Virus record (IMG/VR): IMGVR_UViG_2912849059_000001
Origin: a virus
Reading direction: 5' to 3' (one strand)
DNA: 64,000 bases
This document shows, one piece after another, positions 671 to 49,954 of the stretch. The first letter of the stretch is position 1. The number at the start of each line of letters is the position of its first letter. The notes below the pieces were generated by a model that was given only the letters and a program-made list of their open reading frames with translations, made no database searches and was not told the origin of the DNA. The translations under genes and the position numbers were made by a program.

Positions 671-685
671 TGTATTCTCTCCTAC

Positions 686-3198: not shown

Positions 3199-3219
3199 TC
3201 TTCTGCTACCCCCTTATGC

Positions 3220-4956: not shown

Positions 4957-4970
4957 ATATGTACACTCCT

Positions 4971-6320: not shown

Positions 6321-6333
6321 CTATTACACGCTC

Positions 6334-6714
6334 CTAATCTCTTAATAGTTGGTAATTAAGCCATATAACCTTTTTCTCTGCGGATGCATTGTGGTATTCG
6401 AACTTTAGCTCTGCATTAGCAGGTATAGGTTTTACAATGGAGAAATTAAATCCCTCCGGCACATCTTTTACATAAACCTCTTTAAATACTTGTTGGCCAT
6501 TAATAAATAAATTCCAGTAGTCCGAGTCACTGTAATGTGAAGCAGCAACAGAAAAAGCAATCATTTCTGTTTCGAATGGTAGTGAAAACTTATCTACATG
6601 AATTTCATCATGTATACCAATTCTTCGCCCTTGTATGAATGGCTCTGTTTTTGTTGGGAAGTAAGGTGCGTCAAATCTTCCACCAGCCATATAGGTAACA
6701 GCAAAACTCATCAA
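6334..6714 (-). CDS. 126-aa tail-module protein (copy of 48762-49142)
   Basis: Identical translation. Confidence 0.85.
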   Translation of the reverse strand: MMSFAVTYMAGGRFDAPYFPTKTEPFIQGRRIGIHDEIHVDKFSLPFETEMIAFSVAASHYSDSDYWNLFINGQQVFKEVYVKDVPEGFNFSIVKPIPANAELKFEYHNASAEKKVIWLNYQLLRD

Positions 6715-6723
6715 TACGCCCCC

Positions 6724-7104
6724 TTATCTTAAAAAGTGCAATTCAAACCAAACTGTTTTATCAAGAATTCCTTGGTTATGGAATCGAAATACAATTGTGT
6801 CTCCTGCTTTAACTGCTTTATAAACCATAAAGTGCATCCCTTCCGGAAGCCGCTTTGTATAAATATCTTGGCAAACGGTTTGCCCGTTTACGATTAAATC
6901 CCATTTATCATCTAATTCGTAAATGGAAGAACTAACACTAATTGCGTAAATCTCCATATCTGCAGGTAATGTATATTTCACTTCATCTGTTTTAAATGAT
7001 GTGGAATCCATAATGAAACCTGGTATGAATGGTTCTGTTTTAGTTGGATGAAAAGGTGGATCTAATCGGCCACCGGCTAAATAGGTTGTTTCAAACAAGA
7101 GCAA
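6724..7104 (-). CDS. 126-aa tail-module protein (copy of 49152-49532)
   Basis: Identical translation. Confidence 0.85.
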   Translation of the reverse strand: MLLFETTYLAGGRLDPPFHPTKTEPFIPGFIMDSTSFKTDEVKYTLPADMEIYAISVSSSIYELDDKWDLIVNGQTVCQDIYTKRLPEGMHFMVYKAVKAGDTIVFRFHNQGILDKTVWFELHFLR

Positions 7105-7142
7105 TCACCCTTTTTCGTGTATTAAAAAATTCCCGTGCATCA

Positions 7143-7396
7143 TTACGACACATCGGGAATTGGTAAATCAGATAGTATACCGTTACCTTTATTAAGGAGT
7201 CTCGGCTGCACACGCTCTAATTGTTTTTGTGCATTGTATATTAATTGTATCTCCATTTCTTTTCCGGTTACTTTATGAGAGATAAGAACCTTTTCTAGCA
7301 TACCTTGTGAATTAAAGGCTAAATCATAGTGTAAATATTTATCTCCATCAACTGCAGATAAACGAGCACCATCACGAATAAGGGTATAGCCTTCTG
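7143..7396 (-). pseudogene. 3' part of the 127-aa gene (49571-49954), 5'-truncated by Tn4430
   Basis: EGYTLIRDG...DVS matches the intact copy; the sequence switches to the Tn4430 IR at 7397. Confidence 0.9.
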
Positions 7397-11544: not shown

Positions 11545-13199
11545 CATGCCCATCAACTTAAGGATAGAAACTCTACGGTTTTCCATTAATTGAAATGAAC
11601 AAACTTTTAAACAGTATAATCCTCTTAAAAATGAGCATACGAAATAAACCCTAACGGGTTTCATTTTTTTCTTATGCAGCTTTCTTTTGTTTTCTCAATC
11701 CATTATACTCATAGACAACACCCATAATATCAAAGATAGTTTTCTTCTCATATCGATGGGATTTCCGGCCATTTTTCTTTAGTAGGGTAAACAGGCGGAT
11801 TAAAACCTTTGTTATTATACGGGTGTTTCTCTGTATCGCTTGATATAACAGGGATAGATGATCTTGAATCATCCCAATTGCTTTATATTCGCTTAGTTCT
11901 CTTTTGTGCTTTTGCAACAGAAGTTGGCGCATCTTAAACATCGTGGAAGAACATATAAAAATGGCAATGAGTTTTCCATACACATGGCATTCTAATCGCT
12001 CTTGTTTGATAGTTTGCCAATGATGAATTTGAAATAGAGATTTCCACGTTTTAAATATGATTTCGATCTGCCAGCGGAGGGAGTAAAAATCATGGATTTG
12101 TTCCATCGGAACCACTTCCCAAGGCGTATTCGTAACATATATGTTGATACCCGTTAATCGTTTACTCTTTTCTGAAAATGTAATCCCCTTTTTACTTTCG
12201 GTATAGCTTTGTTTTTTTCTACGTTCCAGTATTTGTTCCTCTGTTAATCGGTAGATAATTACTCTTGTAAATAATCTTTGATTCTTGCCAATATACGACT
12301 CTTTTATTTCATACGTTTGTCCTGGTTTTAACGTGTGCATAATGTTCTCTAAATCAACTTGGATATACTGTGACTGTTTTTTGATTGTCCCATTTCGAAA
12401 GTATTCTGGAAATGGATTTTTCGTATAGACGGTATGGTTTAACTTAAGTCTTGATATATAGCACACGCCACGTTGATCCATTTGATCTAAGTCTTCCAAT
12501 GAAAAATATCCTAAATCACGAATACACAGATCACCCGGCCGTAAGGTATCTAAGCAATCTGTTCCAAATGTTTTATCATTATTTTTTCCAGGACCTACCT
12601 GGAAGTTTAAAAACTGTCCGCTGTGTAAGTCATATTCTAATTGAATCTTGATACCTGCAGTTTGTGCACAACCACCTGACCCAGGATATACATGTGCTAA
12701 ATGTTTCGGTACTTGGAAAATCGTCGCATCTAAAATACGGATTCGTTGAAAATACGTGAGTGCTGCACTTGAAATGGCTGATGTTTTACAAAGTTTACTT
12801 TTCCATAATGCAGAAAAAATATATTTCAAAAATTCAACCGCTTTTTTATCAAAGCGTTTATTGAGTCCTTCTGGACTCATAAGAGTGCCTGTGGCGGCGT
12901 GTAATTGACTGCATAGTCGAACGAGAGAATCACTCGCTGTACGTTGACTGACCCAGATACATATGGTAGCTAATTCATTTCCTGAAAACTTTCGTTTTCT
13001 TTTTACAAAACCTAATTCTTTAGCGAGTTCTTCCAAAAGAGAAGGGGTTAAATGACGATACAGCTCTTCAGAAAATAGTTGTAATTCATCTTGAATTGAA
13101 AGATTCATAAAAAATGTCATCCTTTCTAGCTAGCTTTTTAGAAAGAATAACGTTTTTTGACACTTGGGGGTAGTGCAAATTCTTAAGTTGATGGGCATG
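11545..13199 (-). mobile_element. IS231-group element (IS4 family), 1655 bp, inside the Tn4430 right IR
   Basis: IRs CATGCCCATCAACTTAAG; 11-bp TSD TGGCGGTACCC at 11534-11544 and 13200-13210. Confidence 0.96.
11672..13108 (-). CDS. IS231 transposase, 478 aa from MNLSIQDEL
   Basis: RILDAT, DLGY and YSLRWQIE (IS4 YREK) motifs. Confidence 0.95.
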
Positions 13200-13314
13200 T
13201 GGCGGTACCCCTATAGGAAGACTTGCTTTCCTATGCATAATCAAACGCCCTCTAATTGTGGACTATTGCTTGCATTATTTTTTATTTATCCTTTTAATGC
13301 GGTATGTGAAATTT

Positions 13315-32727: not shown

Positions 32728-32976
32728 TTAAATATGTTCTCCGTGGTCGATATATACATCACTGTATTCGTACGCTGGTGCAGGTGGTCTTCCGTGGTCA
32801 TAAGCAGGCGCTCCACCATGATCCCCATGTGCTTCGAATTTACTTATACCACCAGTATGCCCGTGACTATATGCTAAATCAGGTCTTTGTGGTGCAGGTG
32901 TATCACCTTCAGCCATTGCAATAAATCCTACTGCCATAATGGGAAGTAATAATACTGACTTTAACTTTTTCATCAC
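32728..32976 (-). CDS. phr: Phr-like secreted propeptide with repeated xHG motifs
   Basis: Signal peptide; SHGHTGG, AHGDHGG, DHGRPP, DHGEHI; overlaps the rap stop. Confidence 0.8.
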   Translation of the reverse strand: MMKKLKSVLLLPIMAVGFIAMAEGDTPAPQRPDLAYSHGHTGGISKFEAHGDHGGAPAYDHGRPPAPAYEYSDVYIDHGEHI

Positions 32977-34088
32977 ACTAACGCCCCTTTTTCTTCAAAT
33001 TGTTTTCTGGATTCATTGCTGATATAAAAGTACTTACTTGCTTTTTTGTCGTTCGCTTCTTTATAAAACATAGTAGCGAGAATTTCAGCATATTCTTGAA
33101 CGCACTTTGTTAATCCTTCTACTTCAAAATAAGAAATCCCTGCTTCTATTACACTTTCTAATGTATTTAACTCAGATTCATTATTCAATTCCTTTAATAT
33201 GTTAAATCTGTGTATATACTCTTGATTTCCTATTTGAGTAGACGTTCTTAGCCCCTGTTCTATTAACCTATTGACTGCTGTATGTTCCCTCAATTTATAA
33301 TGTTCCTTAGCTTGTAGAAAGATAGCCTTATAATGGTTTGGTAAATGTTCTGTTACTTCTGATAAGTGGCGGATAGCTAAAGACGAAAGCCCTTGACTAG
33401 CATATAACCACCCTATATTGTTTCTAAGGCGTAATAATAGTTCTATGTTATCACCCTTTTTAACAATATCTATTGCTTTATTTAAGTGTTCTTCAGCTTG
33501 TTCAAATTGTCTTATCTGTATACATGTTAATCCTAGTACATTTTCACATAATGCTACGTTTATCTCATAGCCTTCCTTATTATGAAAAGTTGTTTTTGCT
33601 TTGTTTATATACGTTATAGAGGGGAGGGGCTTATACGTTTGATAGTAGAATGTTGCTAAACGATAATTAAATTCTGCTTGTTCTAGTTCGTCAGGGACGT
33701 ATTTTAGAAGTGATTCTGCTTCTTCAAATTGTTCTCCGGCCTCTGCATAATTAGACAAAAATGTATTATGTATTGCTTTATAAAAGTGGTAGCAATACGC
33801 TAAATAATTGTCTACTGGTTTATTGAAGTTCTCAATTTTATCAAATTCACTTGGTGAAATATTAATGCCTTCAGTTAGAACTTTATACCTAAAATCTAGT
33901 AGAGAGTAATATAATAATAAGTTTTGGTCTTGTAATTTTGTGTCTTTTTCATGTTGTAAATTATTAATTATATTATCAATTTTTCCTTTCAAGTTTGACG
34001 CCTTTACATACCGTTGCATTAACATCGCTTGATACCAGTCATTAAGTAATTTTGTAATTTGTTCATTCCCCTTTACTGGAACATGCAT
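32973..34088 (-). CDS. rap: Rap-family (RRNPP) TPR regulator
   Basis: LLNDWYQAM, DQNLLLYYSLLDFRY, TPR repeats, no HTH. Confidence 0.88.
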   Translation of the reverse strand: MHVPVKGNEQITKLLNDWYQAMLMQRYVKASNLKGKIDNIINNLQHEKDTKLQDQNLLLYYSLLDFRYKVLTEGINISPSEFDKIENFNKPVDNYLAYCYHFYKAIHNTFLSNYAEAGEQFEEAESLLKYVPDELEQAEFNYRLATFYYQTYKPLPSITYINKAKTTFHNKEGYEINVALCENVLGLTCIQIRQFEQAEEHLNKAIDIVKKGDNIELLLRLRNNIGWLYASQGLSSLAIRHLSEVTEHLPNHYKAIFLQAKEHYKLREHTAVNRLIEQGLRTSTQIGNQEYIHRFNILKELNNESELNTLESVIEAGISYFEVEGLTKCVQEYAEILATMFYKEANDKKASKYFYISNESRKQFEEKGALV

Positions 34089-34246
34089 AAAATCCCACCC
34101 TTTTTTTCTGAATAGTCTTACTCAAAAGAATAGCAAAAAAAGGAAGGAAAAAGAATAACAAAGTATATTTCTACATAATTTTCAGACTTTTTATGGTGAA
34201 TATCAACAAAAAAAGTCGATTCCTATCATAAGAACCGACTCTCCTC

Positions 34247-34333: not shown

Positions 34334-34522
34334 TCCATAGTTGAAATTTGTTAGGAAAAAAGTGTTATGCCGACCTAACAAATTTAGAGTATCAAGAACC
34401 CTTGAAATAAAAGGTGTATTTGGGTAGGTAACGTATAAGTCGGCATCCCAACCTCAGCGTACAAGTTTTACTATCCAAAATTCATCTAATTCATATCTTT
34501 ACTCTTGTTAGGACGGCATAAC

Positions 34523-34576
34523 AAATAAGCATGAAAATTATCCCTTATCTTTGGATTGATTTTCATGCTTATTTGC
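34523..34576 (-). terminator. Terminator hairpin after the Ntn-hydrolase-like gene
   Basis: AAATAAGCATGAAAAT / ATTTTCATGCTTATTT. Confidence 0.65.
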
Positions 34577-34595
34577 TTTGGGATAGGATTTTAAT

Positions 34596-35195
34596 TTACA
34601 ATTTGAAAATTATTTTATGAGTGAGATTATTATTTACGGATTTATCGTTTTCACTTATAAAATGATTGAATTGTTCTTGTATTTTAAAAGCATTTTGAGT
34701 ATTGAATTTTAAAAATTCATTTTGTGTAGTAACAGAACTTGATATAAGATTTTGTAGTACTTGATTTGGATTAATCTTCGCGGTTGAATCATTTACGGTA
34801 GAAGCACAACGGATATCATAAGTGTTTGGTAATATTTCTTCTAGTGTGGTGGAACTTTGAATGAAACCTGCATAATAAATATTGTTTAAATCATCCAATC
34901 CCCCAATAAGTAATGAAATGTCTTTATTTTCTACCTGACCATTACCTAAAATATCGAATAGTGAATGAGCGCAACTTTTAGCATTATCTAAATCTATTTC
35001 TGGATTATCTTTAATTCTTGGTATTAAAACTTCAACAATAGCCGCATCTCCTGCCATACCAATAATTATTTTATCCGTTATTTTAAATACTTTTTGATAA
35101 TTTTCATGAGCAATGGAACCATCTAAGTTTATTGCTCTTCCATCCCCTACAAAAGAAATAAATTTGTTAGTTGCAATAATTGATATTAGACTCAC
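34596..35195 (-). CDS. Proteasome-beta/Ntn-hydrolase-like protein, 199 aa, N-terminal Ser
   Basis: GGAGGG RBS + GTG at 35195; S1, D17, R19, K34, G48 spacing after Met removal. Confidence 0.6.
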   Translation of the reverse strand: MSLISIIATNKFISFVGDGRAINLDGSIAHENYQKVFKITDKIIIGMAGDAAIVEVLIPRIKDNPEIDLDNAKSCAHSLFDILGNGQVENKDISLLIGGLDDLNNIYYAGFIQSSTTLEEILPNTYDIRCASTVNDSTAKINPNQVLQNLISSSVTTQNEFLKFNTQNAFKIQEQFNHFISENDKSVNNNLTHKIIFKL

Positions 35196-35333
35196 TGAAA
35201 ATTCCCTCCGATAAACATAGTATAAAATTAGTATATAGGTATTTCGCGTGATTTTCTTTAAAAATAGATAATTACTTTGAGAGATTTTAATGAGTTTTTG
35301 TATACAATGAGAAAGCAACCTAAAATTAAAAGG

Positions 35334-35546
35334 TTACTTTCTCATTTGTTCTTTGCTTTTTAGAATATCTTCTTTGAAATACAATCGGTCTCGTGACATC
35401 TCTTTAATTGGTTTCACTTTTTCCTTCTGAACCATTACATTTAAGTTTTGGCGTGAACAACCTAAAATGTCTAATGCTTCCGAAGTATTTACGATTTCAT
35501 CTTGAATAAACCGAATTAAGTCGTCTTTGGTTTCGAATTTATACAT
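35334..35546 (-). CDS. Small HTH DNA-binding protein
   Basis: NTSEALDILGCSRQNLNVMV. Confidence 0.75.
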   Translation of the reverse strand: MYKFETKDDLIRFIQDEIVNTSEALDILGCSRQNLNVMVQKEKVKPIKEMSRDRLYFKEDILKSKEQMRK

Positions 35547-35766
35547 TCTTTTTCTCCTGCTTTTCCTTGATATAGGTAGTTACTAAATTAAACACCATCA
35601 TTACAAATGCAAGTATACACAGTACGATGAAGATGTAATCTAATGTTTGTAAATTGTTGTAATCAATTTGATACAAGATGTATCCTAAAATCACAAGAAT
35701 TGGTATGTTACTAAAAATGACTTTTTTCATAATATATAGTGTCATGTGATATAATCTTAGGTACAA
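35539..35766 (-). CDS. Small two-TM membrane protein (start probably MKKVIF)
   Basis: Hydrophobic segments; coupled to the HTH gene. Confidence 0.6.
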   Translation of the reverse strand: MYLRLYHMTLYIMKKVIFSNIPILVILGYILYQIDYNNLQTLDYIFIVLCILAFVMMVFNLVTTYIKEKQEKKNV

Positions 35767-35836
35767 GAGAGGTTTCCCTCTCTTGCGGTGTCTTACTCAG
35801 AGTCGTTTTCTTGGCGGGAGCGACTCTTTTCTTTTT
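35762..35836 (+). ncRNA. Putative type I antitoxin sRNA
   Basis: TG-A-TATAAT at 35747-35755; hairpin CAAGAGAGG/CCTCTCTTG; terminator AGAGTCG/CGACTCT + T tract. Confidence 0.6.
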
Positions 35837-35945
35837 CTTCCTTGATTTTGTAGTAAATATCAATTGTGTTTTTAACACCGGAAGATAGTTGTGAGTAAAT
35901 TGTTATGAACGCTGTTATCGTTCCTAAGATTATCATCCAATCCAC
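35793..35945 (-). CDS. Putative type I toxin, 50 aa, not in ORF track (MDWMIILGTITAFITIYSQLSSGVKNTIDIYYKIKEEKEKSRSRQENDSE)
   Basis: AAGGAGGTGA RBS, GTG start, N-terminal TM helix and charged tail. Confidence 0.65.
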   Translation of the reverse strand: MDWMIILGTITAFITIYSQLSSGVKNTIDIYYKIKEEKEKSRSRQENDSE

Positions 35946-36056
35946 TTTGTTCACCTCCTTTTCTTTATACTCTTATTATAGCATTTTATTTGACTCACGT
36001 CAAATAAATGTAGATTAAATTATAGAAAAAATCCATTTTTTTACGTAAAATAAACA

Positions 36057-36094
36057 AAAAAAGGGTATGCCCAAGTTTGAGCATACCCTTTTTT
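36057..36094 (-). terminator. Endolysin terminator
   Basis: AAAAAGGGTATGC / GCATACCCTTTTT. Confidence 0.8.
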
Positions 36095-37153
36095 CTACTT
36101 CACATACACATAGGCTTCATTTGCAGTTATATAGTATGTTACGCCTTTACTGTTGTGTACTTTGTATTGTGGTGAACCATTAACAGATACTTTAGCATCA
36201 ATCGTAAATCCAAGCCCTTCATCTACGGTTCCTGCTACATCTTTATCAGACCAAGAAGCAGAGTCATAGAAACGAAGGTCGTCCACTTTAGAAACAACAC
36301 GTTTTCCTACTACAGGACTTGAAGTAGTAGTTTGTTCCTCTTGATATTTAATGTAAGATGGGTTGTTATAAATCCATTGGTTCCCGCCAAGATTTAACCA
36401 ATCACCTTGTTTTCCCCATACTTGATATGCTTCTCCTTTATTTAATTGACGGATAACACCATAATTTGTTGATGGTCCACTTCTTAGGTTTACGTTAAGT
36501 CCATCAATATAAGCTACTCCTGTTTCGCCTACAACGTTTTGAGATGGTTCTTGTGGTTTTGGTTTAACTGTAACTGTTGCGCCTTCATACGCCTTTTGTA
36601 CGTCCGCTCTGAATTGTGATTCTGATACACCGTGACTGCGAAGGTAATCAATCGGATCTTCGTGGTCAGTTCCACCTAATTTGTAAGTAATATCTTTATG
36701 TGTCCATAAACCTTTGCTTGGATGAATTCCTCTATCTTTTAAAATCTTAGCTAATAGTTTTACATAACGCTCGTAAGAAGATTTAAATTTATCTGGGTTG
36801 CTAGTTTCAGAAAGTTCTACGTGAACAAATCTTTTATTTGCAGCTGGTCCAGCACCATAAGCAACATATTTTGTATCAGCAATTTGGACTGTTTCGTTCC
36901 AATCTACAGCATAATGTACAAATGCATTTCTCCATGTTCTAGCTTCATAATTTCGAATGTTAATAGCTGGTGCTTCTGGTGTTGCAGTACTATGTGCTAC
37001 AACCCCCTCATAAGCGCCCACACCGTAGCGATATGCTTGTTTCGGCAAGTCTTGGATAATTAGTACTCTATCGGCAAATGAAGCCGTAGCAAACGAAAAT
37101 AAGAGTAATAGAGTCATAAATAATGAGCTAAATAGTTTAATTGGTTTTTTCAT
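36095..37153 (-). CDS. Endolysin: signal peptide + Amidase_2 + SH3-type domains, 352 aa
   Basis: VAHSTAT, FVHYAVD, HVELSE, THKD...DHEDP; LNVNLRSGPST SH3 motif. Confidence 0.92.
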   Translation of the reverse strand: MKKPIKLFSSLFMTLLLLFSFATASFADRVLIIQDLPKQAYRYGVGAYEGVVAHSTATPEAPAINIRNYEARTWRNAFVHYAVDWNETVQIADTKYVAYGAGPAANKRFVHVELSETSNPDKFKSSYERYVKLLAKILKDRGIHPSKGLWTHKDITYKLGGTDHEDPIDYLRSHGVSESQFRADVQKAYEGATVTVKPKPQEPSQNVVGETGVAYIDGLNVNLRSGPSTNYGVIRQLNKGEAYQVWGKQGDWLNLGGNQWIYNNPSYIKYQEEQTTTSSPVVGKRVVSKVDDLRFYDSASWSDKDVAGTVDEGLGFTIDAKVSVNGSPQYKVHNSKGVTYYITANEAYVYVK

Positions 37154-37232
37154 TGTGTATTTTCCCCTTTTTGCCAAACAAAAAGAGCACCGTCTTTTGA
37201 CAATGCTCTCCTTATGTAAGGCGTGTATTTTT

Positions 37233-37730
37233 TTATTTGGTAGTATGTTTTTCTTTTCGTGCATCACTTCTTTGGATCTTTGCTTGAATTTCGGATGCTA
37301 CACTTTCTAATAACCATGCAGGAATCCATTTTTCCCAGCCGATTCGTGCACAGTTTGCTGCGAAACTATTAAAAATGTGGTAACTCAATCCACCGACTAC
37401 CATGAAGAAAAAGAAATCAGGTAGTTTAAGAGCAATATCAAATAAATGTGCAAGAGCTGGTAATGATAAAAGCACCACGGTTCTCGTGATGCCCTCAATT
37501 CCATATTGTGATGAGTATGTTCCATCTAGCTTTGAAGCTTTACTTCCCGTAATCCAGTCGAGCATGATAATCCAGCAATAGATCGATATCCAAATTAAGT
37601 TCGCTTTACCGTATAACAAATTAATTATTGTTCCTAATCCACCACCTATAGCACCACCTACTTTAAATTGAGTACTTGTAATAACATCGCTTATATTCAA
37701 TGCCTTGATGAGTTCGTGAATTCTTTCCAA
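37233..37730 (-). CDS. Phage holin (Phage_holin_4_1-like)
   Basis: LDWITGSKAS, multiple TM segments, adjacent to endolysin; TTG start. Confidence 0.8.
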   Translation of the reverse strand: MERIHELIKALNISDVITSTQFKVGGAIGGGLGTIINLLYGKANLIWISIYCWIIMLDWITGSKASKLDGTYSSQYGIEGITRTVVLLSLPALAHLFDIALKLPDFFFFMVVGGLSYHIFNSFAANCARIGWEKWIPAWLLESVASEIQAKIQRSDARKEKHTTK

Positions 37731-38025: not shown

Positions 38026-39222
38026 ATGTTCTATTTAGGTATTGATATCGCTAAACATAAACATTATGCGTCCATTATCGATCAAACTGGAAAACCTATT
38101 ACTAAGCCATTTCCCTTTCGGAATCACAAAGAAGGTGGACAAGCACTATTAAATTGGATGTACCGATACATTGAGTCTCCTACAGAAATAATGATTGGAA
38201 TGGAGGCAACAGGACATTATTGGTTAGCCGTTTATTCTTTTCTACTGGATCATGGCTTCTCAGTCGTTGTATTAAACCCAATTCAAACCAATGCCTGGCG
38301 AAAAGGCACAGAAATTAGAAAGCGGAAAACAGACGCCATTGATGCCACTATGATTGCCGATATCATTCGATTCGGCCGTTTTGTTGAAACCCCACTTGTG
38401 GACGAGAAAATGTTCGCTCTAAAACAAATGAGCCGCTTTCGTAATGCGCTTGTAAGTAATATGAGTGATTTAAAACGAAAAGCTCTTGTCGTATTAGATC
38501 AGACTTTCCCAGAGTACCAAAGCATCTTTTCGGATGTTTTTGGTAAAACTTCTTCACAAATCTTACTTGAATATTCCTCTCCCAGTGACTATGAACAGAT
38601 ATCTATTGATGATTTAACACAAATAATTGAGCAAACCAGTCGTAACCGACTTGGGAAGAAAACAGCCAACAAACTAATGGAATTAGCCTCTAATTCGTTT
38701 GGTGTTACCTTCTGTAAAAACGCTTTTTCCTTTCAACTAAAAATGTTGATGGAGCAAATTCGTTTTATCGAAGATCAAATCAAAGAGTGTGAAGAAGAAA
38801 TGTCACAACTTTTAATTGATTTAGATACTCCTATCATGACAATACCTGGCGTTGGACCGATTTTAGGTGCCACTATACTAAGTGAAATTGGGGATATACA
38901 CCGCTTTGACAAACCATCTAAACTTGTCGCTTACGCAGGCATCGATGCCTCTGTGTCCCAATCTGGGCAATTTGAATCCTCAGGTACGTCTATATCCAAG
39001 CGTGGTTCTTCTCATTTGCGTAGAGCCTTATTCCAGGCGGCTATTACAGCTCATAAACATGACCCTGTATTAAAAGCCTTTTATGAAAAGAAACGAAAGC
39101 AAGGAAAGCACTACTATGTTTGTATAGGAGCCGTAGCTAGAAAGCTGTGTTACATTATCTACGCCATTCTTAAAAGCAATAAACCGTATGAAGTTCCTCC
39201 ACATTCACCAGTAGAAACTTGA
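38026..39222 (+). CDS. IS110 transposase/recombinase
   Basis: GIDIAK, MEATGHYW, KTDAIDA (DEDD); IPGVG; AYAGID..QSG. Confidence 0.96.
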   Translation: MFYLGIDIAKHKHYASIIDQTGKPITKPFPFRNHKEGGQALLNWMYRYIESPTEIMIGMEATGHYWLAVYSFLLDHGFSVVVLNPIQTNAWRKGTEIRKRKTDAIDATMIADIIRFGRFVETPLVDEKMFALKQMSRFRNALVSNMSDLKRKALVVLDQTFPEYQSIFSDVFGKTSSQILLEYSSPSDYEQISIDDLTQIIEQTSRNRLGKKTANKLMELASNSFGVTFCKNAFSFQLKMLMEQIRFIEDQIKECEEEMSQLLIDLDTPIMTIPGVGPILGATILSEIGDIHRFDKPSKLVAYAGIDASVSQSGQFESSGTSISKRGSSHLRRALFQAAITAHKHDPVLKAFYEKKRKQGKHYYVCIGAVARKLCYIIYAILKSNKPYEVPPHSPVET

Positions 39223-41096: not shown

Positions 41097-43097
41097 TCAA
41101 TTGTGTTTTAGATGAATATTAAAATAAATTGGTTCGAATGCTAGGAAATTTGTATCCTTCACAACCTTTACCCAAAAATCACGCGTACTTTGTGCGGTTA
41201 CTGAATCAATCTGTATTTCATTTGAATAGCTTGTCCCATCTAACGAAATAAGCGCCCAGGTGTAACCGACTTTCTCCATGTACTGTTGAATGGATAGTTT
41301 TATATTTGTAGCAGCACCGATGTTATCATTTACGATTGTCATTTTTACAACACGCTCATTATTCACCATGTAACCTAAGTTCGTTGGATCCGTTGTATTT
41401 AATTCTGCGCTATTCATTTTGATTTGCAGGGATGAACCCATGCAATACATATCCCCACCGTAAAAGGTAGCTTGTTTCTTTGCTATTAGTTCGTTTTCTT
41501 CATCATATATTTCTATGATTCCCTCAAACTCTAAAGAAGGAAGTAGAATATCAATGCCTGTATGAGCTACAGCTACAATGTTAGTAGACAGGATATTATC
41601 TGCAGTATCTTTTAATACAACCTTATAATTTTCATATAGTTGGCGCAGACGTAACATATTGCTTGTTGTCATAATAATTTTATTGATGTCTAGTGGTACA
41701 AATTCCTCTGCAGTTCCTCTTTTTAAAACAACACCAATTCTTTTTGCTGCCAATGAATCGTTATCCGCATAATCAAAAAATGTATCTGTCTTTGTATAAA
41801 AGTCCCATTGATCTTCCTTACATATTGCCATCCACTCTTTATTGCTTTGTGAACTATTAGAAGAATATGATTCAAGAAACTCAACTTTATTCTTTTCGTT
41901 TTGATAGATCAGTAAGCCGCCTTCATCTCCTTCTTTTGTAGGAGCATAATCCACAATAACCTGGATTGCAAAGTTACTTTGTGGTTTATCGATTAAAAGC
42001 ATAACGTCTTTATCTGTAGAATGATTCATACGTAAGAATCCTTTTTTAACAGCATTGTTAAATGCATTTGATGGTGACATAAGCCATTTTGGATTTATGG
42101 AATCAAAATCATCTACAAATATTTTTCCGCTTTCTTTTTCGTATAAGGATACTTTTTCTTTTTTATGATTAAAAGGACCTAACTTTCCGTCAGCATCGAT
42201 GTCAATTGCATCAAGATTTATAAAATATCCTTTTATTTCAACAGTATGCTCTTGGTTCATTAGACCTACCTTCTCATATACTAGTGTCTGTAAGGATGAA
42301 GATTGACCAGCAGGCTTAAAGAAGTTAATTATTTCTTCTACTCCATCAACTAGTATCGTAGCGTTAGCATCATACGACATGTTCATAACACCAATAATTC
42401 TAACTCTTGTACCCATAAAATTGAACTTGAGTGAAACTGGATTCTTATCAGGTGGATTGTTTGACGTACTGTGTTTATAGTGCGAAGTCGAGTTATAAAA
42501 ATCACTATGAATTAAATCTGCCCATACGCCCTCGTATTTGATATTGCTATCCGTATCATCAAACCGTTTCCAATCTGGTTCTGGTTCTTTTAATATATCA
42601 CCAACTTTAGCACCTAAATCTGCGTAATCAATAGCAGCTAAAAATGTATAAATAAGTCCAGGTGTTCCTGGTGGTAGAGCGGAACCTTTTGCTGTAACTG
42701 TAACGAGATGCTCACCTTTCACTAAATTTAGTTTTTCAAAACAAACATGAAAAGAACTAGAAGTAGCAGGAACCGAACCAGTAAACTTAGTTCCATCAAT
42801 ACTGACTTCAATGTTAAATCTGTGTTCACGCCACCTTTTAAGCATTATGCGTAAAGCTGTTCCAGTAAACTTAAACGAAAATGAGTGGCCCTCTTCTCTC
42901 CCTACAAACCAGGCACTTGCATCGCTAAGGTTATCATCTTTCCCTACTACATCCCATTTTCCATCCTGTGCAGTATTAGTACCATATGGTGGCACATCGT
43001 AAAAAAACTTACCTGGACCTACATTTGCTAAACTGCAATACTTTCGTGTCCAACCGGATTCTGGGTTTAGTAGACTTTTTCCTAATTGATTGGCCAT
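41097..43097 (-). CDS. Adhesion/receptor-binding-like protein with repeated beta-sandwich modules
   Basis: LLNPESGWTRKY and ILKEPEPDWKRFDD repeats, then lectin-like and Ig-like regions. Confidence 0.6.
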   Translation of the reverse strand: MANQLGKSLLNPESGWTRKYCSLANVGPGKFFYDVPPYGTNTAQDGKWDVVGKDDNLSDASAWFVGREEGHSFSFKFTGTALRIMLKRWREHRFNIEVSIDGTKFTGSVPATSSSFHVCFEKLNLVKGEHLVTVTAKGSALPPGTPGLIYTFLAAIDYADLGAKVGDILKEPEPDWKRFDDTDSNIKYEGVWADLIHSDFYNSTSHYKHSTSNNPPDKNPVSLKFNFMGTRVRIIGVMNMSYDANATILVDGVEEIINFFKPAGQSSSLQTLVYEKVGLMNQEHTVEIKGYFINLDAIDIDADGKLGPFNHKKEKVSLYEKESGKIFVDDFDSINPKWLMSPSNAFNNAVKKGFLRMNHSTDKDVMLLIDKPQSNFAIQVIVDYAPTKEGDEGGLLIYQNEKNKVEFLESYSSNSSQSNKEWMAICKEDQWDFYTKTDTFFDYADNDSLAAKRIGVVLKRGTAEEFVPLDINKIIMTTSNMLRLRQLYENYKVVLKDTADNILSTNIVAVAHTGIDILLPSLEFEGIIEIYDEENELIAKKQATFYGGDMYCMGSSLQIKMNSAELNTTDPTNLGYMVNNERVVKMTIVNDNIGAATNIKLSIQQYMEKVGYTWALISLDGTSYSNEIQIDSVTAQSTRDFWVKVVKDTNFLAFEPIYFNIHLKHN

Positions 43098-43112
43098 TGT
43101 ATTCTCTCCTAC

Positions 43113-45626
43113 TTATCTCGTTTTCTTCCAGTTTGAATTTGTCCACCAGGATTGACGACTATGCCGCAGCCATAACTTAGGATCATCATTTTCTTTTTCG
43201 ATAACTATTAATTCATCTGGTTTTTCTGTATCTAGTACTCTCTCCATTTTGAATAGCTCATTATCTTCTGGAACTGATTCTCTTTCTGGTGTACGTTCAA
43301 ACCGTTCATATTTCTCTGTAACGCTTTCTAATTCATGTTCCCTATAAAATGTCTCTCCTTCGTTAGTTGCAGCTTCTATGCTAGTCTGTCGCTCTAATAA
43401 TTCATGTTCACTAACGATTGCATACCGTTCAGATTCCCTTGCTGCATCTACTGTTTCAATTACATTTGTATCGGCTGTTATAACTTCTTTATCAGCCGGT
43501 GTTATATCAGAGATAATTCCGCCTTCAAATTCACGTATACCGGTAAAAGCTTCTTGCTCTGTAATAAGGGCTTGTTGTGAATCTTGTTTGTAAGAAATGT
43601 CTAAAGTTATGTGTTCAGCATCTAAGATAACTGGAACGATGTCTGAAGCTACTTCTTCAATTACTGCAGTTGTATGTTCTTTTATTGCTTTTTCAGATTC
43701 AATTGTTTGATCTAGCTTCATTTGCATCACATTTAGTGATTTAGATGAATCATTAAGTAAGGCAATACGTGTTTCTAGTTCTTTTTGAACACGGCCAAAC
43801 AAATCGAATTCTGGAAGATATACAGGAATACCAAGGCCCTCAAATAAATCAAACTCTTCTATGGTAGTTTGTAATTCTTTTTCGGTTTTATTGGCCACTT
43901 CATCAGTATTTACATCAGTAATAAGTACGCGTTCTTTTAATCCAAATGAAGAAATTTCATCAACATGTGTAAGTACTGGAGTATCTTCTTTATCAGCTTG
44001 TTCCAGTTCAACTACAGTTGCTTGTAGCTCATTTTTCACTTCTGCAAATGTAACGTTTGGCGATACGCCTTGTAATTCTTTTAAGATACGATGAGAATAA
44101 TCTGCATCAGTAATACCGGCATTTATTTCATGTAACCTTTCTGCTTCTTCTGTGACAATTGTCTGTATCTCGAATATGTTTTGCGATTTATTCGCATCGT
44201 CAGTTTCGGAAATGTCTTTAACAGATAATATCCGTGAAGTATTTTCAACTTCTTGTCCTACCTCTATAGCTACAGTAAATACATTTTCTTTATTTGCGAA
44301 TTCTTGTTGATCGGCATAAACAGAATCAAGTGTTTCTACTATACGTTCAAATGTGTGTATTGTATCTACATTCGCATACTGTTCTTTTGTTCTTGTAAAT
44401 GATGCGGATTCATTTCTTTCAGAATCGAATATATTTATTTTCTTGCTTACGTCGTTACTTGCGATAACATCTGCTGCAAGTTCCTTTGTTCGAATAGAGT
44501 GATCCAGGTTAATTTGAGCTACATCTATGTCACGAATTAAATACGCACTTTCAATATCTTCATAAGGAAGCAGGTCCACATTTTCAATTTCTTCTACACG
44601 ATTCAACTCATATTGTTTAGCAATAGACGTTTCAATGTCTCTTTGCATACGAGCGAATAAATCATAATCCGGAAGATAAACCGGTATACCCATACCATTG
44701 AACAAATCAAATTCTTCTATGATTCCTTTGACTTCTCGCTCTTTTGTACAAAATTCGAATTGTGCCGGAGCATGAAGAAGTATTTCTTTTTGCTGTATAT
44801 CACCAGTTTCATTTTCGGCAATAGATACAGGGAATATATTTGGAACTGCATTAGATAAAGTAACCTCTGCATGTGTAGCTTTTAGCTCCCTGGTAACAAT
44901 CTCGCTCGTTTCATTATGCATTGATACAGCTTCATAATCCGTTGTAACTCTGTCTGCCATAAGGTCATTATAAAAACCCTCACCGTATACAATACGTGCA
45001 ACATTTACCCATTCTGGTAATACTTCCACACCTGCAGCGAATTCACGTAACTTACCTTTTAGTAAATCCTGCTGTATGATCGGCGCAACTTCATATTCAT
45101 TCGTTATAAGATTTGTTACATCAGAAGCGTGTACCATTGCTTCTATCTCACTTGGTTTTTCGCTCTCTACCCCTTCGATATGGTTTATATCGAAAATTCG
45201 TCTATGTTGTGTTGATTCTTCTGCTGAAATTAGTTGAACAGAAATACTGTCCATTCGTTGCGAATGCTGCATTTCAATGTTGGCCACATTTATATTTCGA
45301 TTTAAATCAGAATCAGTTGCATTTGAAATGAAGGCTTCTACCTCTATTTGTCGCAATGCATTCTCTACAACATCTGTTAAAATCCCTTTTGCTCTTACTT
45401 TTGTGGCAGTTACTCCTGCGTTATCTTCTTTAACAGCCTTATATCTCGCATAAGGAGCAATACAAACTGGATAATCGACATCATTTTTATTTTCTGTATT
45501 CGCAGGTGTAATAGAAAAAGAATAAACTTTTTCATTCTGATTAGGTCCAGAACCAACGACAACAACATGACTTTTTTCTTTGGTACATATAGAAGGGGAA
45601 GCAATAGAATAAACTTTTTCACTCAT
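43113..45626 (-). CDS. Large acidic protein with internal repeats, 837 aa
   Basis: IEEFDLF-G-GIPVYLP--DLF-R-Q--ET-I twice; E/D/V/I/T-rich. Confidence 0.75.
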   Translation of the reverse strand: MSEKVYSIASPSICTKEKSHVVVVGSGPNQNEKVYSFSITPANTENKNDVDYPVCIAPYARYKAVKEDNAGVTATKVRAKGILTDVVENALRQIEVEAFISNATDSDLNRNINVANIEMQHSQRMDSISVQLISAEESTQHRRIFDINHIEGVESEKPSEIEAMVHASDVTNLITNEYEVAPIIQQDLLKGKLREFAAGVEVLPEWVNVARIVYGEGFYNDLMADRVTTDYEAVSMHNETSEIVTRELKATHAEVTLSNAVPNIFPVSIAENETGDIQQKEILLHAPAQFEFCTKEREVKGIIEEFDLFNGMGIPVYLPDYDLFARMQRDIETSIAKQYELNRVEEIENVDLLPYEDIESAYLIRDIDVAQINLDHSIRTKELAADVIASNDVSKKINIFDSERNESASFTRTKEQYANVDTIHTFERIVETLDSVYADQQEFANKENVFTVAIEVGQEVENTSRILSVKDISETDDANKSQNIFEIQTIVTEEAERLHEINAGITDADYSHRILKELQGVSPNVTFAEVKNELQATVVELEQADKEDTPVLTHVDEISSFGLKERVLITDVNTDEVANKTEKELQTTIEEFDLFEGLGIPVYLPEFDLFGRVQKELETRIALLNDSSKSLNVMQMKLDQTIESEKAIKEHTTAVIEEVASDIVPVILDAEHITLDISYKQDSQQALITEQEAFTGIREFEGGIISDITPADKEVITADTNVIETVDAARESERYAIVSEHELLERQTSIEAATNEGETFYREHELESVTEKYERFERTPERESVPEDNELFKMERVLDTEKPDELIVIEKENDDPKLWLRHSRQSWWTNSNWKKTR

Positions 45627-45647
45627 TCTTCTGCTACCCCCTTATGC

Positions 45648-47384
45648 TTAAATATCTTCTTTGTAGATTGCTAAACCAATTGGATTAAATGGTGTTGCTT
45701 TCGCTTGTGTCATAGGACAAACCGGCGTTGTTGGTAATGTATAACGATATAATTGGGCCATTTCATAAGCGCCTGTGATTTCAGAACCAATAACCGGTGC
45801 TTCGTTAAATGTAACGGTCTTATCCTCTGCATTGTATACATAATCTGTTTTTTCTACTTCTTTACATGAAATGAATAATCGTAACGTTTCGCCCTTTGGT
45901 TTATGTTCTAAATGAAATACTTTACGGTGGCCATCACCTTGACCAAGTACTTCATCTACAACTGTTTTTTCAATTTCTAGCTCATCAGCTTGCTGGATAT
46001 TCTTTGGATGAACCGCATATACGTCATCCAGTTTTCCAACGTATCCATCATTTGGATGCACAATATAAATTTGAGATAAATGGTATTTACCACTATAAAC
46101 CGATGGATTAAAGCGTCCTTGGCCACTATCTACTGACATATCATGAGTAATGAAAGCTAAATAATGATGCTGGTACATGGCTCCTGTACTTGATTGTGAT
46201 AATTGAACCGTTTCATTTCCGTTTGATGTATCAGAACCATAATCAAGTGGCGCATTACCGATTTTCTTATTTGGTGAATATACAAATTGGTCGCCTGGTC
46301 TGCAGCCGCTTAAAATAATCATGTTTTTTCTTGGTGCAACATCGAATGTATATAATTTTCCAATATACAACGGAACAAATAATGCACGAACTGGATTTGG
46401 CGTTGGATCTACACGCATAAACATAATTAAGCGGTCCTTGTTTGCATTCCCATACAGATAAACAACAGAGTCGCGATTTAATTCTTTAGAGAAACGTTGC
46501 TCCGGTGTAAAACTAATTGATGTATAAGGCGATGGATTCACAAAATTAATCGTAGAATATACTTCGCCCATAATACTTTCCATCTTTTGTACATCGAAAC
46601 TTGTTTTTGCCGTTAATGTATCCAGTGTTCCGTCTTCTTTTGGTAATAAGAAATAAATACCGCTAATCTTAATTGTTGTATCTGCTGCAGGTGCGGTTTT
46701 AAATACAATTTCCGTTTCAGTGAACGAGTACTCGCTAGGATCAACAATAGTATTATCCTTGTAAACTACGGTCCTGCTTTCGTCAAAGTTAGGGAATGGT
46801 AATGCGAAGTTCTTTTTTGTTCCATTTCCTTTTCCTAATTCCCCTAATTTATCACCGGAAAGGATCTCTTTTTCAATAAAGTATCGATTGAAAGTGAACA
46901 GCAGCATGTCATTGTTTGGCTCATATGTGTTGGTAGCTAATCTATATTCGCATGTTACTTTATCGCCTTTTGCAATAGCGGTAGTAAATGTTACTTTTCC
47001 TGTAGTTGCATCCACCTTATATTTACTCTTTTCTTGTTCAAACCCATTTACATATACAATGACAGAAGGGCCAAGAACAGGAGAAACAGGGATAGAGAAA
47101 TCTTTCTTCACGCCATCCCCCATCCCTAATTTACCTAGTGGAGAATCTGCAGAAATAAACCGGCTATCAGTGAAATCAGAATCCGCAGTGTCATACGCAT
47201 TTGCTATACCGAATCTTCTGCGTTCGCCATCACTTCCTAACGATTCAAACAACCTTACATCAATAAATTTTGAAATGCCGCTCTTAATTTGGAAAAATAG
47301 CGTTCGTTTCCAACCGTTATCAGCAAATAGTTTTTCTAATTCTTGCGGTAATGTTTGTAAATATACGACTTTATCAAACCACAT
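45648..47384 (-). CDS. Fibre/structural protein with three G-G(D/N)G-K-F modules, 578 aa
   Basis: LGMGDGVKKDF, LGKGNGTKKNF, LGQGDGHRKVF; FNPSVYS motif. Confidence 0.7.
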   Translation of the reverse strand: MWFDKVVYLQTLPQELEKLFADNGWKRTLFFQIKSGISKFIDVRLFESLGSDGERRRFGIANAYDTADSDFTDSRFISADSPLGKLGMGDGVKKDFSIPVSPVLGPSVIVYVNGFEQEKSKYKVDATTGKVTFTTAIAKGDKVTCEYRLATNTYEPNNDMLLFTFNRYFIEKEILSGDKLGELGKGNGTKKNFALPFPNFDESRTVVYKDNTIVDPSEYSFTETEIVFKTAPAADTTIKISGIYFLLPKEDGTLDTLTAKTSFDVQKMESIMGEVYSTINFVNPSPYTSISFTPEQRFSKELNRDSVVYLYGNANKDRLIMFMRVDPTPNPVRALFVPLYIGKLYTFDVAPRKNMIILSGCRPGDQFVYSPNKKIGNAPLDYGSDTSNGNETVQLSQSSTGAMYQHHYLAFITHDMSVDSGQGRFNPSVYSGKYHLSQIYIVHPNDGYVGKLDDVYAVHPKNIQQADELEIEKTVVDEVLGQGDGHRKVFHLEHKPKGETLRLFISCKEVEKTDYVYNAEDKTVTFNEAPVIGSEITGAYEMAQLYRYTLPTTPVCPMTQAKATPFNPIGLAIYKEDI

Positions 47385-47398
47385 ATATGTACACTCCT

Positions 47399-48748
47399 TT
47401 ATACTGTTTTCTCAAAAATACCTAACCCAGCAGGACGATACGCCGTAGCAGGTCTTTTTGTAATTGGTGAAATAGCATCTACATTAAAGAATTTGTAAAT
47501 GTCGTGTGAATCCGGACAAGTATTCTTTCTAACTTTTAATCTATCGCCATTTAATAGACCTAGCGGAGACAATAGGATCATATAAGGTAAATATCCACGT
47601 ACACCTTCATCTGGATGCACAATATAAGCACGAGAAGTATGTACTTTATTGCTATAAACAGACGGGTTAAATTGATATTTGTATTCGTCATTATCTTGTG
47701 ACTGCCATGCTAGTGAATATTGACCGCCATCTTTACCAACGCGATCTGGTGGCATTGCATTAGGCGCTACATTCCAAGCAATAAAATGAGCCTGGTACCT
47801 TGCTCCTAATCGTGAACGTTTAATAATTACATTATCAATACCGTTACCAGGAGAACGTGGATAAGACTTCATGACAGGCATGTAATTTTCTACATTTCTA
47901 TATGGTGTCGTATCGTTAAAATCGAATTTGTGTGATGCTGCTTCGTTCCCGGTATCAAATGCGGTTCCTGCCCATAATGCATCCCCTAATGTATCATCGT
48001 TAGCGTAACTTTCTAATTGGCCCATATAAAGCGGAGTAACTGGAACTACATTGTTTTCAAAAGCTGGTGTATTATCTGCTTGTATTAATAAAACAACGCG
48101 ACTTTCATCAACTTGGCCATTAATTCGCACTAATGAATCTGGCCACCAATTTGTTTGAGCATCGACACCTTGGATATTCGTATTTCGCAATGTTACTTTC
48201 ACCCAAGGAGACATCATGACTTGTGTCTCTGCTTCATCATAAGAGTAAACTTTATATGTACCGCCACCACTTGGACTTACTTTTGTAGTAACTGTTATCT
48301 TAGTTAATTCCACATCTAATAATATTTTTTCAAATTTATTAGATTCATAAGGAAGAACAAGTATACCTTCATCAACAACGCTTGGTTCTTTTTCAATCAT
48401 ATAAACATAAAAACAAGAACGATCCCTGCCACTTTCTAGACGTTTTTTACCGTCTTCGGCAAAAGCTTTCTTTCCTTCTTCATTTGTGAAGTTGTATTTT
48501 ATCTCTGACTTTTTAAGTGACCATTTTGAAATTTGAGCAATCCCATAAATAGAACCGCTATTGTTCTTCACTAACATGTGTTTACTCATGCCAAATTCAA
48601 ATTTTGTATCATCGTCAGATTTCTGTTCCATATCTGGATAAACAGATCTGAAAAATGATTTTACTTTCTTCCATCCGTTAGCGATTACCAATTTAACAAT
48701 TTCGTCTTGGAATTCGCCTTCTGTATACATTTTTTCAACGTATGCCAT
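47399..48748 (-). CDS. Fibre/structural protein, 449 aa
   Basis: FNPSVYS..H.S..YIVHP.G shared with the 578-aa gene. Confidence 0.7.
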   Translation of the reverse strand: MAYVEKMYTEGEFQDEIVKLVIANGWKKVKSFFRSVYPDMEQKSDDDTKFEFGMSKHMLVKNNSGSIYGIAQISKWSLKKSEIKYNFTNEEGKKAFAEDGKKRLESGRDRSCFYVYMIEKEPSVVDEGILVLPYESNKFEKILLDVELTKITVTTKVSPSGGGTYKVYSYDEAETQVMMSPWVKVTLRNTNIQGVDAQTNWWPDSLVRINGQVDESRVVLLIQADNTPAFENNVVPVTPLYMGQLESYANDDTLGDALWAGTAFDTGNEAASHKFDFNDTTPYRNVENYMPVMKSYPRSPGNGIDNVIIKRSRLGARYQAHFIAWNVAPNAMPPDRVGKDGGQYSLAWQSQDNDEYKYQFNPSVYSNKVHTSRAYIVHPDEGVRGYLPYMILLSPLGLLNGDRLKVRKNTCPDSHDIYKFFNVDAISPITKRPATAYRPAGLGIFEKTV

Positions 48749-48761
48749 CTATTACACGCTC

Positions 48762-49142
48762 CTAATCTCTTAATAGTTGGTAATTAAGCCATATAACCTT
48801 TTTCTCTGCGGATGCATTGTGGTATTCGAACTTTAGCTCTGCATTAGCAGGTATAGGTTTTACAATGGAGAAATTAAATCCCTCCGGCACATCTTTTACA
48901 TAAACCTCTTTAAATACTTGTTGGCCATTAATAAATAAATTCCAGTAGTCCGAGTCACTGTAATGTGAAGCAGCAACAGAAAAAGCAATCATTTCTGTTT
49001 CGAATGGTAGTGAAAACTTATCTACATGAATTTCATCATGTATACCAATTCTTCGCCCTTGTATGAATGGCTCTGTTTTTGTTGGGAAGTAAGGTGCGTC
49101 AAATCTTCCACCAGCCATATAGGTAACAGCAAAACTCATCAA
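48762..49142 (-). CDS. 126-aa tail-module protein (paralogue A)
   Basis: YMAGGRFDAPYFPTKTEPFIQG. Confidence 0.75.
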   Translation of the reverse strand: MMSFAVTYMAGGRFDAPYFPTKTEPFIQGRRIGIHDEIHVDKFSLPFETEMIAFSVAASHYSDSDYWNLFINGQQVFKEVYVKDVPEGFNFSIVKPIPANAELKFEYHNASAEKKVIWLNYQLLRD

Positions 49143-49151
49143 TACGCCCCC

Positions 49152-49532
49152 TTATCTTAAAAAGTGCAATTCAAACCAAACTGTTTTATCAAGAATTCCT
49201 TGGTTATGGAATCGAAATACAATTGTGTCTCCTGCTTTAACTGCTTTATAAACCATAAAGTGCATCCCTTCCGGAAGCCGCTTTGTATAAATATCTTGGC
49301 AAACGGTTTGCCCGTTTACGATTAAATCCCATTTATCATCTAATTCGTAAATGGAAGAACTAACACTAATTGCGTAAATCTCCATATCTGCAGGTAATGT
49401 ATATTTCACTTCATCTGTTTTAAATGATGTGGAATCCATAATGAAACCTGGTATGAATGGTTCTGTTTTAGTTGGATGAAAAGGTGGATCTAATCGGCCA
49501 CCGGCTAAATAGGTTGTTTCAAACAAGAGCAA
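49152..49532 (-). CDS. 126-aa tail-module protein (paralogue B)
   Basis: YLAGGRLDPPFHPTKTEPFIPG. Confidence 0.75.
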   Translation of the reverse strand: MLLFETTYLAGGRLDPPFHPTKTEPFIPGFIMDSTSFKTDEVKYTLPADMEIYAISVSSSIYELDDKWDLIVNGQTVCQDIYTKRLPEGMHFMVYKAVKAGDTIVFRFHNQGILDKTVWFELHFLR

Positions 49533-49570
49533 TCACCCTTTTTCGTGTATTAAAAAATTCCCGTGCATCA

Positions 49571-49954
49571 TTACGACACATCGGGAATTGGTAAATCAGA
49601 TAGTATACCGTTACCTTTATTAAGGAGTCTCGGCTGCACACGCTCTAATTGTTTTTGTGCATTGTATATTAATTGTATCTCCATTTCTTTTCCGGTTACT
49701 TTATGAGAGATAAGAACCTTTTCTAGCATACCTTGTGAATTAAAGGCTAAATCATAGTGTAAATATTTATCTCCATCAACTGCAGATAAACGAGCACCAT
49801 CACGAATAAGGGTATAGCCTTCTGTCATACTTTCTTTAAATACATCGTTCGGGTCATTTCCAGGCATTGGTTTACCGCCGTTATATATTTGCCTGTCAAT
49901 CAACCCTTTCATTAGATACATAATCGGATCATATAAATTCTTTTGCATTATCAT
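49571..49954 (-). CDS. Tail-module protein, 127 aa
   Basis: ORF with RBS, in operon. Confidence 0.7.
   Translation of the reverse strand: MIMQKNLYDPIMYLMKGLIDRQIYNGGKPMPGNDPNDVFKESMTEGYTLIRDGARLSAVDGDKYLHYDLAFNSQGMLEKVLISHKVTGKEMEIQLIYNAQKQLERVQPRLLNKGNGILSDLPIPDVS

Follow-up and report, generated by a model that had tools for sequence, protein, structure and literature searches.

In their 2021 survey, Fuchs, Alva and Lupas described 22 new proteasome-like subfamilies, including five 'Firmicute clusters' (FC1–FC5), all of them without an AAA+ partner and without an informative gene context; proteasome subunits on their own, not assembled into the complex, show no activity (PMC8665760). Proteasome homologues other than 20S and HslV are almost all uncharacterised, and Connectase, the one that has been studied, proved to be an enzyme of a novel type with practical use as a tool. 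An earlier note on the DNA analysed here had pointed out that Firmicutes lack 20S proteasomes. This is correct, but the anomaly was overstated: because Firmicutes have HslV/CodW (PMC7468587) as well as the five Firmicute clusters (PMC8665760), a proteasome-like Ntn gene among them is less anomalous than implied.

The gene is carried on a 64,000-nt virus record (IMG/VR IMGVR_UViG_2912849059_000001; the whole stretch is called the window below). Like FC1–FC5, its family is Firmicutes-restricted and uncharacterised, lacks a propeptide and has a Thr1/Ser1-Asp17-Lys33-Gly47 site, whereas Table 1 of the survey marks no phage occurrence for FC1–FC5 (PMC8665760) and the family studied here is common on prophages and plasmid prophages. 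Matching by description (Bacillota distribution, size and missing context) makes it probably one of FC1–FC3 or FC5; the representatives WP_075525441.1, WP_000217171.1, WP_098409529.1 and WP_106036939.1 (FC1–FC3 and FC5) are absent among the family members listed. The core reading of the earlier note, a proteasome-beta-like Ntn hydrolase with Ser1 carried as phage cargo, is supported by predicted fold, residue conservation and prophage context. The features of the locus are collected in Table 1.

Table 1. Features of the Ntn hydrolase gene and the small gene unit around it, in window coordinates.
Feature	Coordinates	Strand	Remarks
Terminator-like hairpin ending the endolysin gene	36056..36095	(-)	separates the unit from the lysis cassette
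Sigma-70/sigma-A-type promoter-like site, TTGACG-17-TATAAT with TG	35975..36003	(-)	11/12, consensus match only
53-aa small protein, first gene of the unit	35793..35954	(-)	phrog_12246, unknown function
68-aa hydrophobic small protein	35539..35745	(-)	no family match
70-aa HTH_17/excisionase-like DNA-binding protein	35334..35546	(-)	Pfam HTH_17 E 1.2e-4; phrog_4691 excisionase E 4.9e-36
Shine-Dalgarno GGAGGG	35204..35209	(-)	8 nt 5' of the GTG start of the Ntn gene
Ntn hydrolase gene, 199 aa	34596..35195	(-)	proteasome-beta fold (predicted), Met-Ser start; = WP_000053023.1 in pCT51
Strong hairpin and U-rich run	34517..34580	(-)	~20 nt 3' of the stop codon; -26.3 kcal/mol, z -7.2
Endolysin 3'-end remnant, 44 codons	34247..34381	(-)	own terminator 34208-34246

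The GTG start codon (35195–35193, minus strand), already preferred in the earlier note for its good ribosome-binding site, and with it the Met-Ser N-terminus, is secure, because a Shine-Dalgarno motif and an ATG or GTG followed by Ser recur without exception at the 21 loci of full-length relatives and in the partial copy L011, taken together from viral and genomic collections. ATG serves as the start at 19 of these loci and GTG at 3, each time with a purine-rich Shine-Dalgarno motif 5' of it and Ser directly after. An alternative TTG at 35318 would give a product of 240 aa. RefSeq has the same 600-nt CDS in pCT51, annotated as a hypothetical protein. The GTG-started product begins (M)SLISIIATNKF, so the N-terminus proposed earlier holds, but the proposed C-terminus does not: after ...NNNL the protein runs on for eight residues (THKIIFKL), which make up the final beta strand in the structural model. 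RNA-library contigs from two samples of one 2015 study span 34774–35046, inside the gene, and also cover a ParM-like gene and a Phr gene; they hint at transcription of the Ntn gene in culture, though they carry no level, strand or condition. The endolysin and holin genes (36012–37681) have no contig cover, an absence that is not usable as evidence.

Resemblance to the proteasome family is far beyond chance, whether judged by Pfam score, by profile comparison with the PDB (E 2.6e-9) or by fold (Z 20). The protein matches PF00227 (Proteasome) with 26.3 bits against a gathering score of 22.4 (E 6.8e-6), and the family profile retrieves beta subunits as its PDB matches at the E value just given, aligning SDGR...K with SDTR...K. 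HslV follows at E 1e-5 to 1e-4, with E. coli HslV aligned start to start; hhalign against 12 Bacillota HslV sequences returns 95.8% probability over residues 6–97 only, and the C-terminal half of the protein has no profile alignment to HslV. The NCBIfam equivalog models stay below their cut-offs (TIGR03634, archaeal beta, 23.4 bits vs 224; NF003964, HslV, 12.8 bits vs 137). In PHROGs the protein is phrog_36497 (function unknown), with a weak match to phrog_1040, 'peptidase HslV family' (E 1.4e-5 over 60 residues). The defence models of PADLOC-DB 2.0 gave 0 families at E ≤ 1, and one family member is already named 'Ntn hydrolase family protein' by NCBI.

The family is rare and its distribution patchy, which would be expected of mobile cargo that phages and hosts have in common. 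A word-indexed search found five relatives only; when 1.84 billion cluster representatives were searched exhaustively with a profile, 295 clusters scored E ≤ 0.001, 72 of them at E ≤ 1e-10, nearly all of 185–200 aa and matched end to end. No further full-length member turned up in 400 evenly sampled Bacillota species genomes; 15 weak matches there were considered as family members and rejected, being canonical HslV, which in Bacillota is encoded by separate genes and starts MFKG-TTIVAV. A close-alignment search for related loci in genome contigs found nothing, nor did tblastn of P0001 and P0021 against 50,697 GenBank phage records, from which records near the window's genome may have been excluded. 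The only match outside Bacillota (L007, 8001–8342) is in a Geopsychrobacteraceae MAG, where a tblastn match of 185 residues exceeds an ORF of 113 aa; this copy is probably frameshifted or a pseudogene.

We counted residue conservation in 145 near-full-length relatives with ~20–25% identity to the query, using precursor numbering (mature numbering is one less). Residue 2 is Ser in 134 and Thr in 6 (M-S or M-T start), D18 is kept in 142, K35 in 144 and G49 in all 145, and R20 in 109, the others having L, Q or K. In profile searches the conserved N-terminal residues fall on D17, R19 and K33 of beta subunits. Towards the C-terminus lies a D-x-[ST]-V-N motif (D184 in 119, S/T186 in 133, V187 in 137 and N188 in 140 relatives), and Met1, Gly19, Gly98-Gly99, Gln173 and Asn177 are also near-invariant. 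The beta-subunit equivalents named in the earlier note (S1, D17, R19, K34, G48 and a late D-K-S-V in mature numbering) are accordingly conserved in the family, R19 in about 75% of it, and the homologues keep S1/D17/R19/K34, which the note had singled out as a test. We infer from the sequence that D184 and S186 would be the equivalents of proteasome D166 and S169, and put this no more strongly because the C-terminal half is not alignable to HslV by profile.

The same counts bear on whether the protein is catalytically dead and retains only the fold for a structural or regulatory purpose, like proteasome alpha or inactive beta subunits. The replacements of R19 would fit such a protein, as would the lack, at the sequence level, of any evident conserved equivalent of proteasome Ser129 among the 145 relatives. 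The nucleophile, D17, K34 and G48, on the other hand, are kept in 97–100% of members despite the low overall identity, and Ser and Thr are exchanged exactly at position 1, the pattern of a working nucleophile. A dead protein is therefore highly improbable.

The absence of a predicted Ntn fold had been named as refuting the earlier reading; the prediction is a proteasome-type fold. AlphaFold with a 116-sequence alignment gave pLDDT 96.3 and pTM 0.92, with all five models at ~96; with only six sequences, one model of five was good. The model shows the alpha-beta-beta-alpha Ntn fold, in which the nucleophile is the first residue of strand S1. A search against structural representatives placed 20S beta subunits on top (Z 18–20, best 20.1; rmsd 2.2–3.6 over 172–186 residues), followed by Anbu (17.8), HslV (17.4), BPH (15.6) and alpha subunits (about 14.7). 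Connectase gave the lowest values of the proteasome-like proteins (13.2 and 12.2), and the remaining Ntn hydrolases reached Z 7–11. Residue 2 of the model, Ser, superposes on chain residue 1 of mature HslV, Anbu, BPH and Connectase, which puts the Ser after Met at the nucleophile position. Taking fold and conservation together, we regard it as very likely that the protein is an Ntn hydrolase of proteasome fold whose catalytic set is intact.

Model, equivalog scores and gene context also set the protein apart from 20S, HslV, Anbu and Connectase, of none of which it is an orthologue. With 20S beta subunits it shares the best fold match, the best sequence match and equivalents of D17, R19, K33 and G47, but it has Ser for Thr, no propeptide and no C-terminal helix H5, its C-terminus being a strand (192–197); neither an alpha subunit nor a recurrent second PF00227-like neighbour was seen in the 21 loci. 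HslV/CodW has the same fold, an alignable N-terminal half and activation at or near the N-terminus, whereas the Ntn protein falls below the equivalog cut-off, has no adjacent HslU/CodX and does not align in its C-terminal half. The long C-terminal H5 with which Anbu forms a coiled coil is absent from the model (PMC8665760). BPH is described as having a long, highly acidic pore loop after H2 (PMC8665760), for which there is no quantitative definition to compare with; the loop of the model (84–93) is short, ~10 residues with 2 acidic ones. PPH and AAH resemble the gene in being proteasome-like, carried by tailed phages and common to phage and host, but PPH is proteobacterial, has ~140 aa and lacks helix H2 (PMC8665760), which the 199-aa Ntn protein has.

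Connectase (MJ0548, M. mazei) deserves separate treatment, since the earlier note had felt reminded of it by the SLI start. If the likeness went deep, the protein would be a monomer that joins proteins sequence-specifically, as a ligase or transpeptidase, and not a hydrolase. Both have an Ntn fold (Z 12–13 between them) without a propeptide or an ATPase partner, and Ser1 occurs in some Connectases, including that of M. mazei. Ser1 alone is no link, however, because a catalytic or essential N-terminal Ser is reported for B. subtilis CodW, the Firmicute HslV (PMC7468587, citing Kang 2001). Connectase is the weakest proteasome-like fold match, and its signature, a two-helix lid inserted between S3 and S4 in a protein without the first helix pair H1/H2 (PMC8665760), is the opposite of the model, which has both helix pairs (the first at 51–63 and 72–83, with no helix before residue 51) and no S3–S4 insertion. 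Connectase is moreover confined to methanogenic archaea, with a defined substrate, MtrA. The resemblance is thus weak, and we consider a ligase very improbable.

The structural search also speaks to a different class of substrate, in which the protein, as an Ntn amidohydrolase, would cleave amides other than proteins, for example fragments of cell-wall peptide, acylated signals or small metabolites. The Ntn clan is rich in acylases, ceramidases and bile-salt hydrolases, which is where the matches at Z 7–11 belong, the genes of relatives adjoin lysis genes and tail-associated GDSL esterases, and there is no unfoldase partner. Yet the proteasome-family peptidases, at Z 15–20, stand well above the acylases, the residues of the D17/K33 type are those of the peptidase branch, and the protein has no signal peptide and would therefore be cytoplasmic, away from the wall. 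Such an activity is unlikely, if the least so of the alternatives to a peptidase considered here.

The element that carries the gene is, by its gene content, a pCT51-type plasmid prophage, because phage structural and lysis genes occur together with a ParM/Alp-type partition protein: it encodes a tape-measure protein, a head-maturation protease, a holin and an amidase endolysin. Over 6 kb the sequence agrees at 100% identity with pCT51 of B. thuringiensis CT-43 and with three further plasmids of that species; nothing relevant was found in the literature on pCT51. Together with the variable accessory slot described below, this agrees with the earlier description of the gene as phage cargo.

Within the element, the Ntn gene is the last gene of a small unit (Table 1), separated by a 138-bp gap from the HTH_17 gene. 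The promoter-like site is the best of the region and lies directly 3' of the endolysin terminator. The hairpin behind the Ntn gene is the probable terminator of the unit; none of 200 shuffles was as stable, and the consensus scan missed it on account of its long loop. The last ~27 aa of the endolysin remnant further on repeat, almost without change, the C-terminus of the intact endolysin (36095–37267), and the remnant is a scar which shows that the unit came in by recombination or insertion.

The slot of the Ntn gene, with the lysis cassette on one side and the genes for plasmid maintenance and Rap-Phr on the other, is a hot spot, and the gene is variable cargo there, because only 4 of the 136 Bacillus plasmids that share parts of the region encode the protein and the slot is occupied differently elsewhere. 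Related plasmids have an identical copy of the 53-aa protein; some that lack the Ntn gene keep the 53-aa and HTH genes with different genes in the next slot, and an HTH and DUF4411 pair or a RES-domain gene occurs as nearby cargo.

Several further observations concern the surroundings of the unit. Beyond the remnant lie a Rap-Phr pair (32728–34088, minus strand) and then the partition genes; the pair consists of a gene for a Rap-type TPR protein (RapH_N + TPR, 371 aa) and an overlapping gene for an 82-aa secreted Phr-like peptide, and is quorum-sensing cargo whose Phr part is represented in the RNA-library contigs. A functional link between the Ntn gene and Rap-Phr was considered and rejected, as no other locus has Rap-Phr beside the gene. 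An IS110-family transposase (ISBth13 in pCT51; 38026–39222, plus strand) sits between the holin and the tail-fibre genes, and the RNA-library contigs of one run show many differences there, presumably from other copies. The window also contains a 7.4-kb direct repeat of 99.97% identity (1–7396 and 42427–49824; its tail-region genes encode products of 578, 449, 126 and 126 aa) and an inverted repeat that is perfect over 561 bp (12651–13211 vs 64000–63440). Because of these repeats, the window is to be read as two related prophage structural modules or as a composite or mis-joined plasmid, which fits the occurrence of the same region in records of 85–93 kb beside others of 40–51 kb.

We compared the gene neighbourhoods of relatives in thirteen IMG/VR loci and eight loci from species-representative genomes. 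The relatives lie in accessory slots of Bacillota phages, often beside nuclease or HEPN genes. As in the window, the gene is 3' of the lysis cassette in L002 and L003; elsewhere it is just 5' of the small terminase gene (L004, and L018 with only a HEPN gene intervening) or among small early-type ORFs (L014–L016). Some relatives are lone chromosomal genes, and at four genomic loci (Paenibacillus, Terrilactibacillus, Sporolactobacillus and a Clostridia MAG) the neighbours are ordinary housekeeping genes. All-against-all BLAST of the neighbours in the 21 loci found no conserved partner and no ATPase; the families present in at least 3 of the 21 are holins, tail proteins and a few groups of unannotated ORFs (3–4 loci each).

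Two genes annotated as 'pPIWI-associating nuclease' adjoin the Ntn gene, in L002 (8786–9649, plus strand) and L005 (6997–7842, minus strand). Each encodes a stand-alone protein of 281–287 aa with pP_pnuc_1 and pP_pnuc_2 (E about 1e-29 each), and the Ntn proteins of the two loci, 87% and 29% identical to that of the window, are only distantly related to each other. The shared nuclease may be a chance effect of the hot spot or may point to a loose functional link. Other immediate neighbours include a Cthe_2314-type HEPN gene (L018), DUF2441 and DUF4145 genes (L020) and two GDSL-esterase genes (L019), and a Mrr-type endonuclease gene lies ~1 kb 3' of the Ntn gene in L003. A tubulin/FtsZ-like gene (5760–6842, minus strand; 360 aa), recognised by eye from its N-terminal motif only, occurs near the Ntn homologue in L012 and L022, on a viral-flagged Paenibacillus element of 138 kb, and perhaps represents a partition system of TubZ/PhuZ type.

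In several relatives the gene is placed in the late operon, between Dit and Tal or before the holin gene, and because of this, expression from the lysogen cannot be general for the family. Dit and Tal genes are normally contiguous. The placement raises the possibility of a virion- or tail-assembly-associated protease, a late gene product that processes tail proteins or acts at infection. Homologues do separate Dit from Tal on two Bacillota phage contigs (L017, 8001–8576; L019, 8001–8570), and in L005, L020 and L021 the gene stands between the tail-fibre genes and the holin gene, on the same strand and with short gaps; FC4 has C-terminal domains resembling phage tail proteins (PMC8665760). The gene of the window, in contrast, is not part of the late operon, from which two terminators and a promoter-like site of its own set it off, and other homologues precede the terminase gene or occupy housekeeping chromosomal contexts. 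The protein is also a single domain of 190 aa with no attachment module, and a weak search for longer, fused forms of the family found none. A tail-associated role is improbable on this evidence.

We therefore favour a cytoplasmic, catalytically competent Ntn hydrolase, most likely a peptidase, encoded by a stand-alone moron gene, an explanation to which, taken whole, we assign a probability of roughly 0.68. No propeptide would have to be removed: methionine aminopeptidase would cleave off the initiator Met and expose Ser1 as the nucleophile, which would act with Asp17, Lys34, the Gly48 oxyanion position (mature numbering) and the C-terminal motif. The enzyme would work on a peptide substrate, with no AAA+ unfoldase or other fixed partner, and its gene would be an accessory moron in a small unit with its own promoter-like site and putative terminator. 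We consider it likely that the protein hydrolyses amides, most probably as a peptidase, with Met removal as its only activation step and without a dedicated unfoldase; the replacement of R19 in about a quarter of members counts against an active enzyme, as do the missing Ser129 equivalent and the inactivity of unassembled proteasome subunits.

What the activity would serve is a matter for guesswork. Because of the neighbour genes in the relatives' loci, a role in phage–host conflict or lifestyle control, through selective cleavage of a host or phage protein, suggests itself as a tentative guess; nothing relevant was found in the literature on proteasome-type proteins in anti-phage defence. The roles put forward in the earlier note, in defence, anti-defence or repressor control, are guesses as well. 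Also doubtful is the specific form of this idea, a phage-spread, unfoldase-independent Ser1 protease directed at one or a few proteins of host or phage, for instance immunity factors, repressors or other regulators of lifestyle. If it were true, this would be the first viral proteasome homologue with a defined function in Gram-positive bacteria, and its repeated placement beside HEPN, pPIWI-associated-nuclease, DUF4145 and Mrr-type genes would reflect inter-genomic conflict.

For now the gene remains a well-supported annotation rather than a discovery. Proteins of its kind were already catalogued computationally in 2021, and what is new is the membership and the phage association of a Firmicute family. 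It is largely temperate phages and phage-plasmids that spread this Firmicute-type family of proteasome homologues, a mode of spread unmarked in the table of the 2021 survey, and they carry it in hot spots that also house defence and toxin genes. The protein is small and partner-free, requires only Met removal as processing, and comes from a plasmid prophage of a tractable Bacillus.
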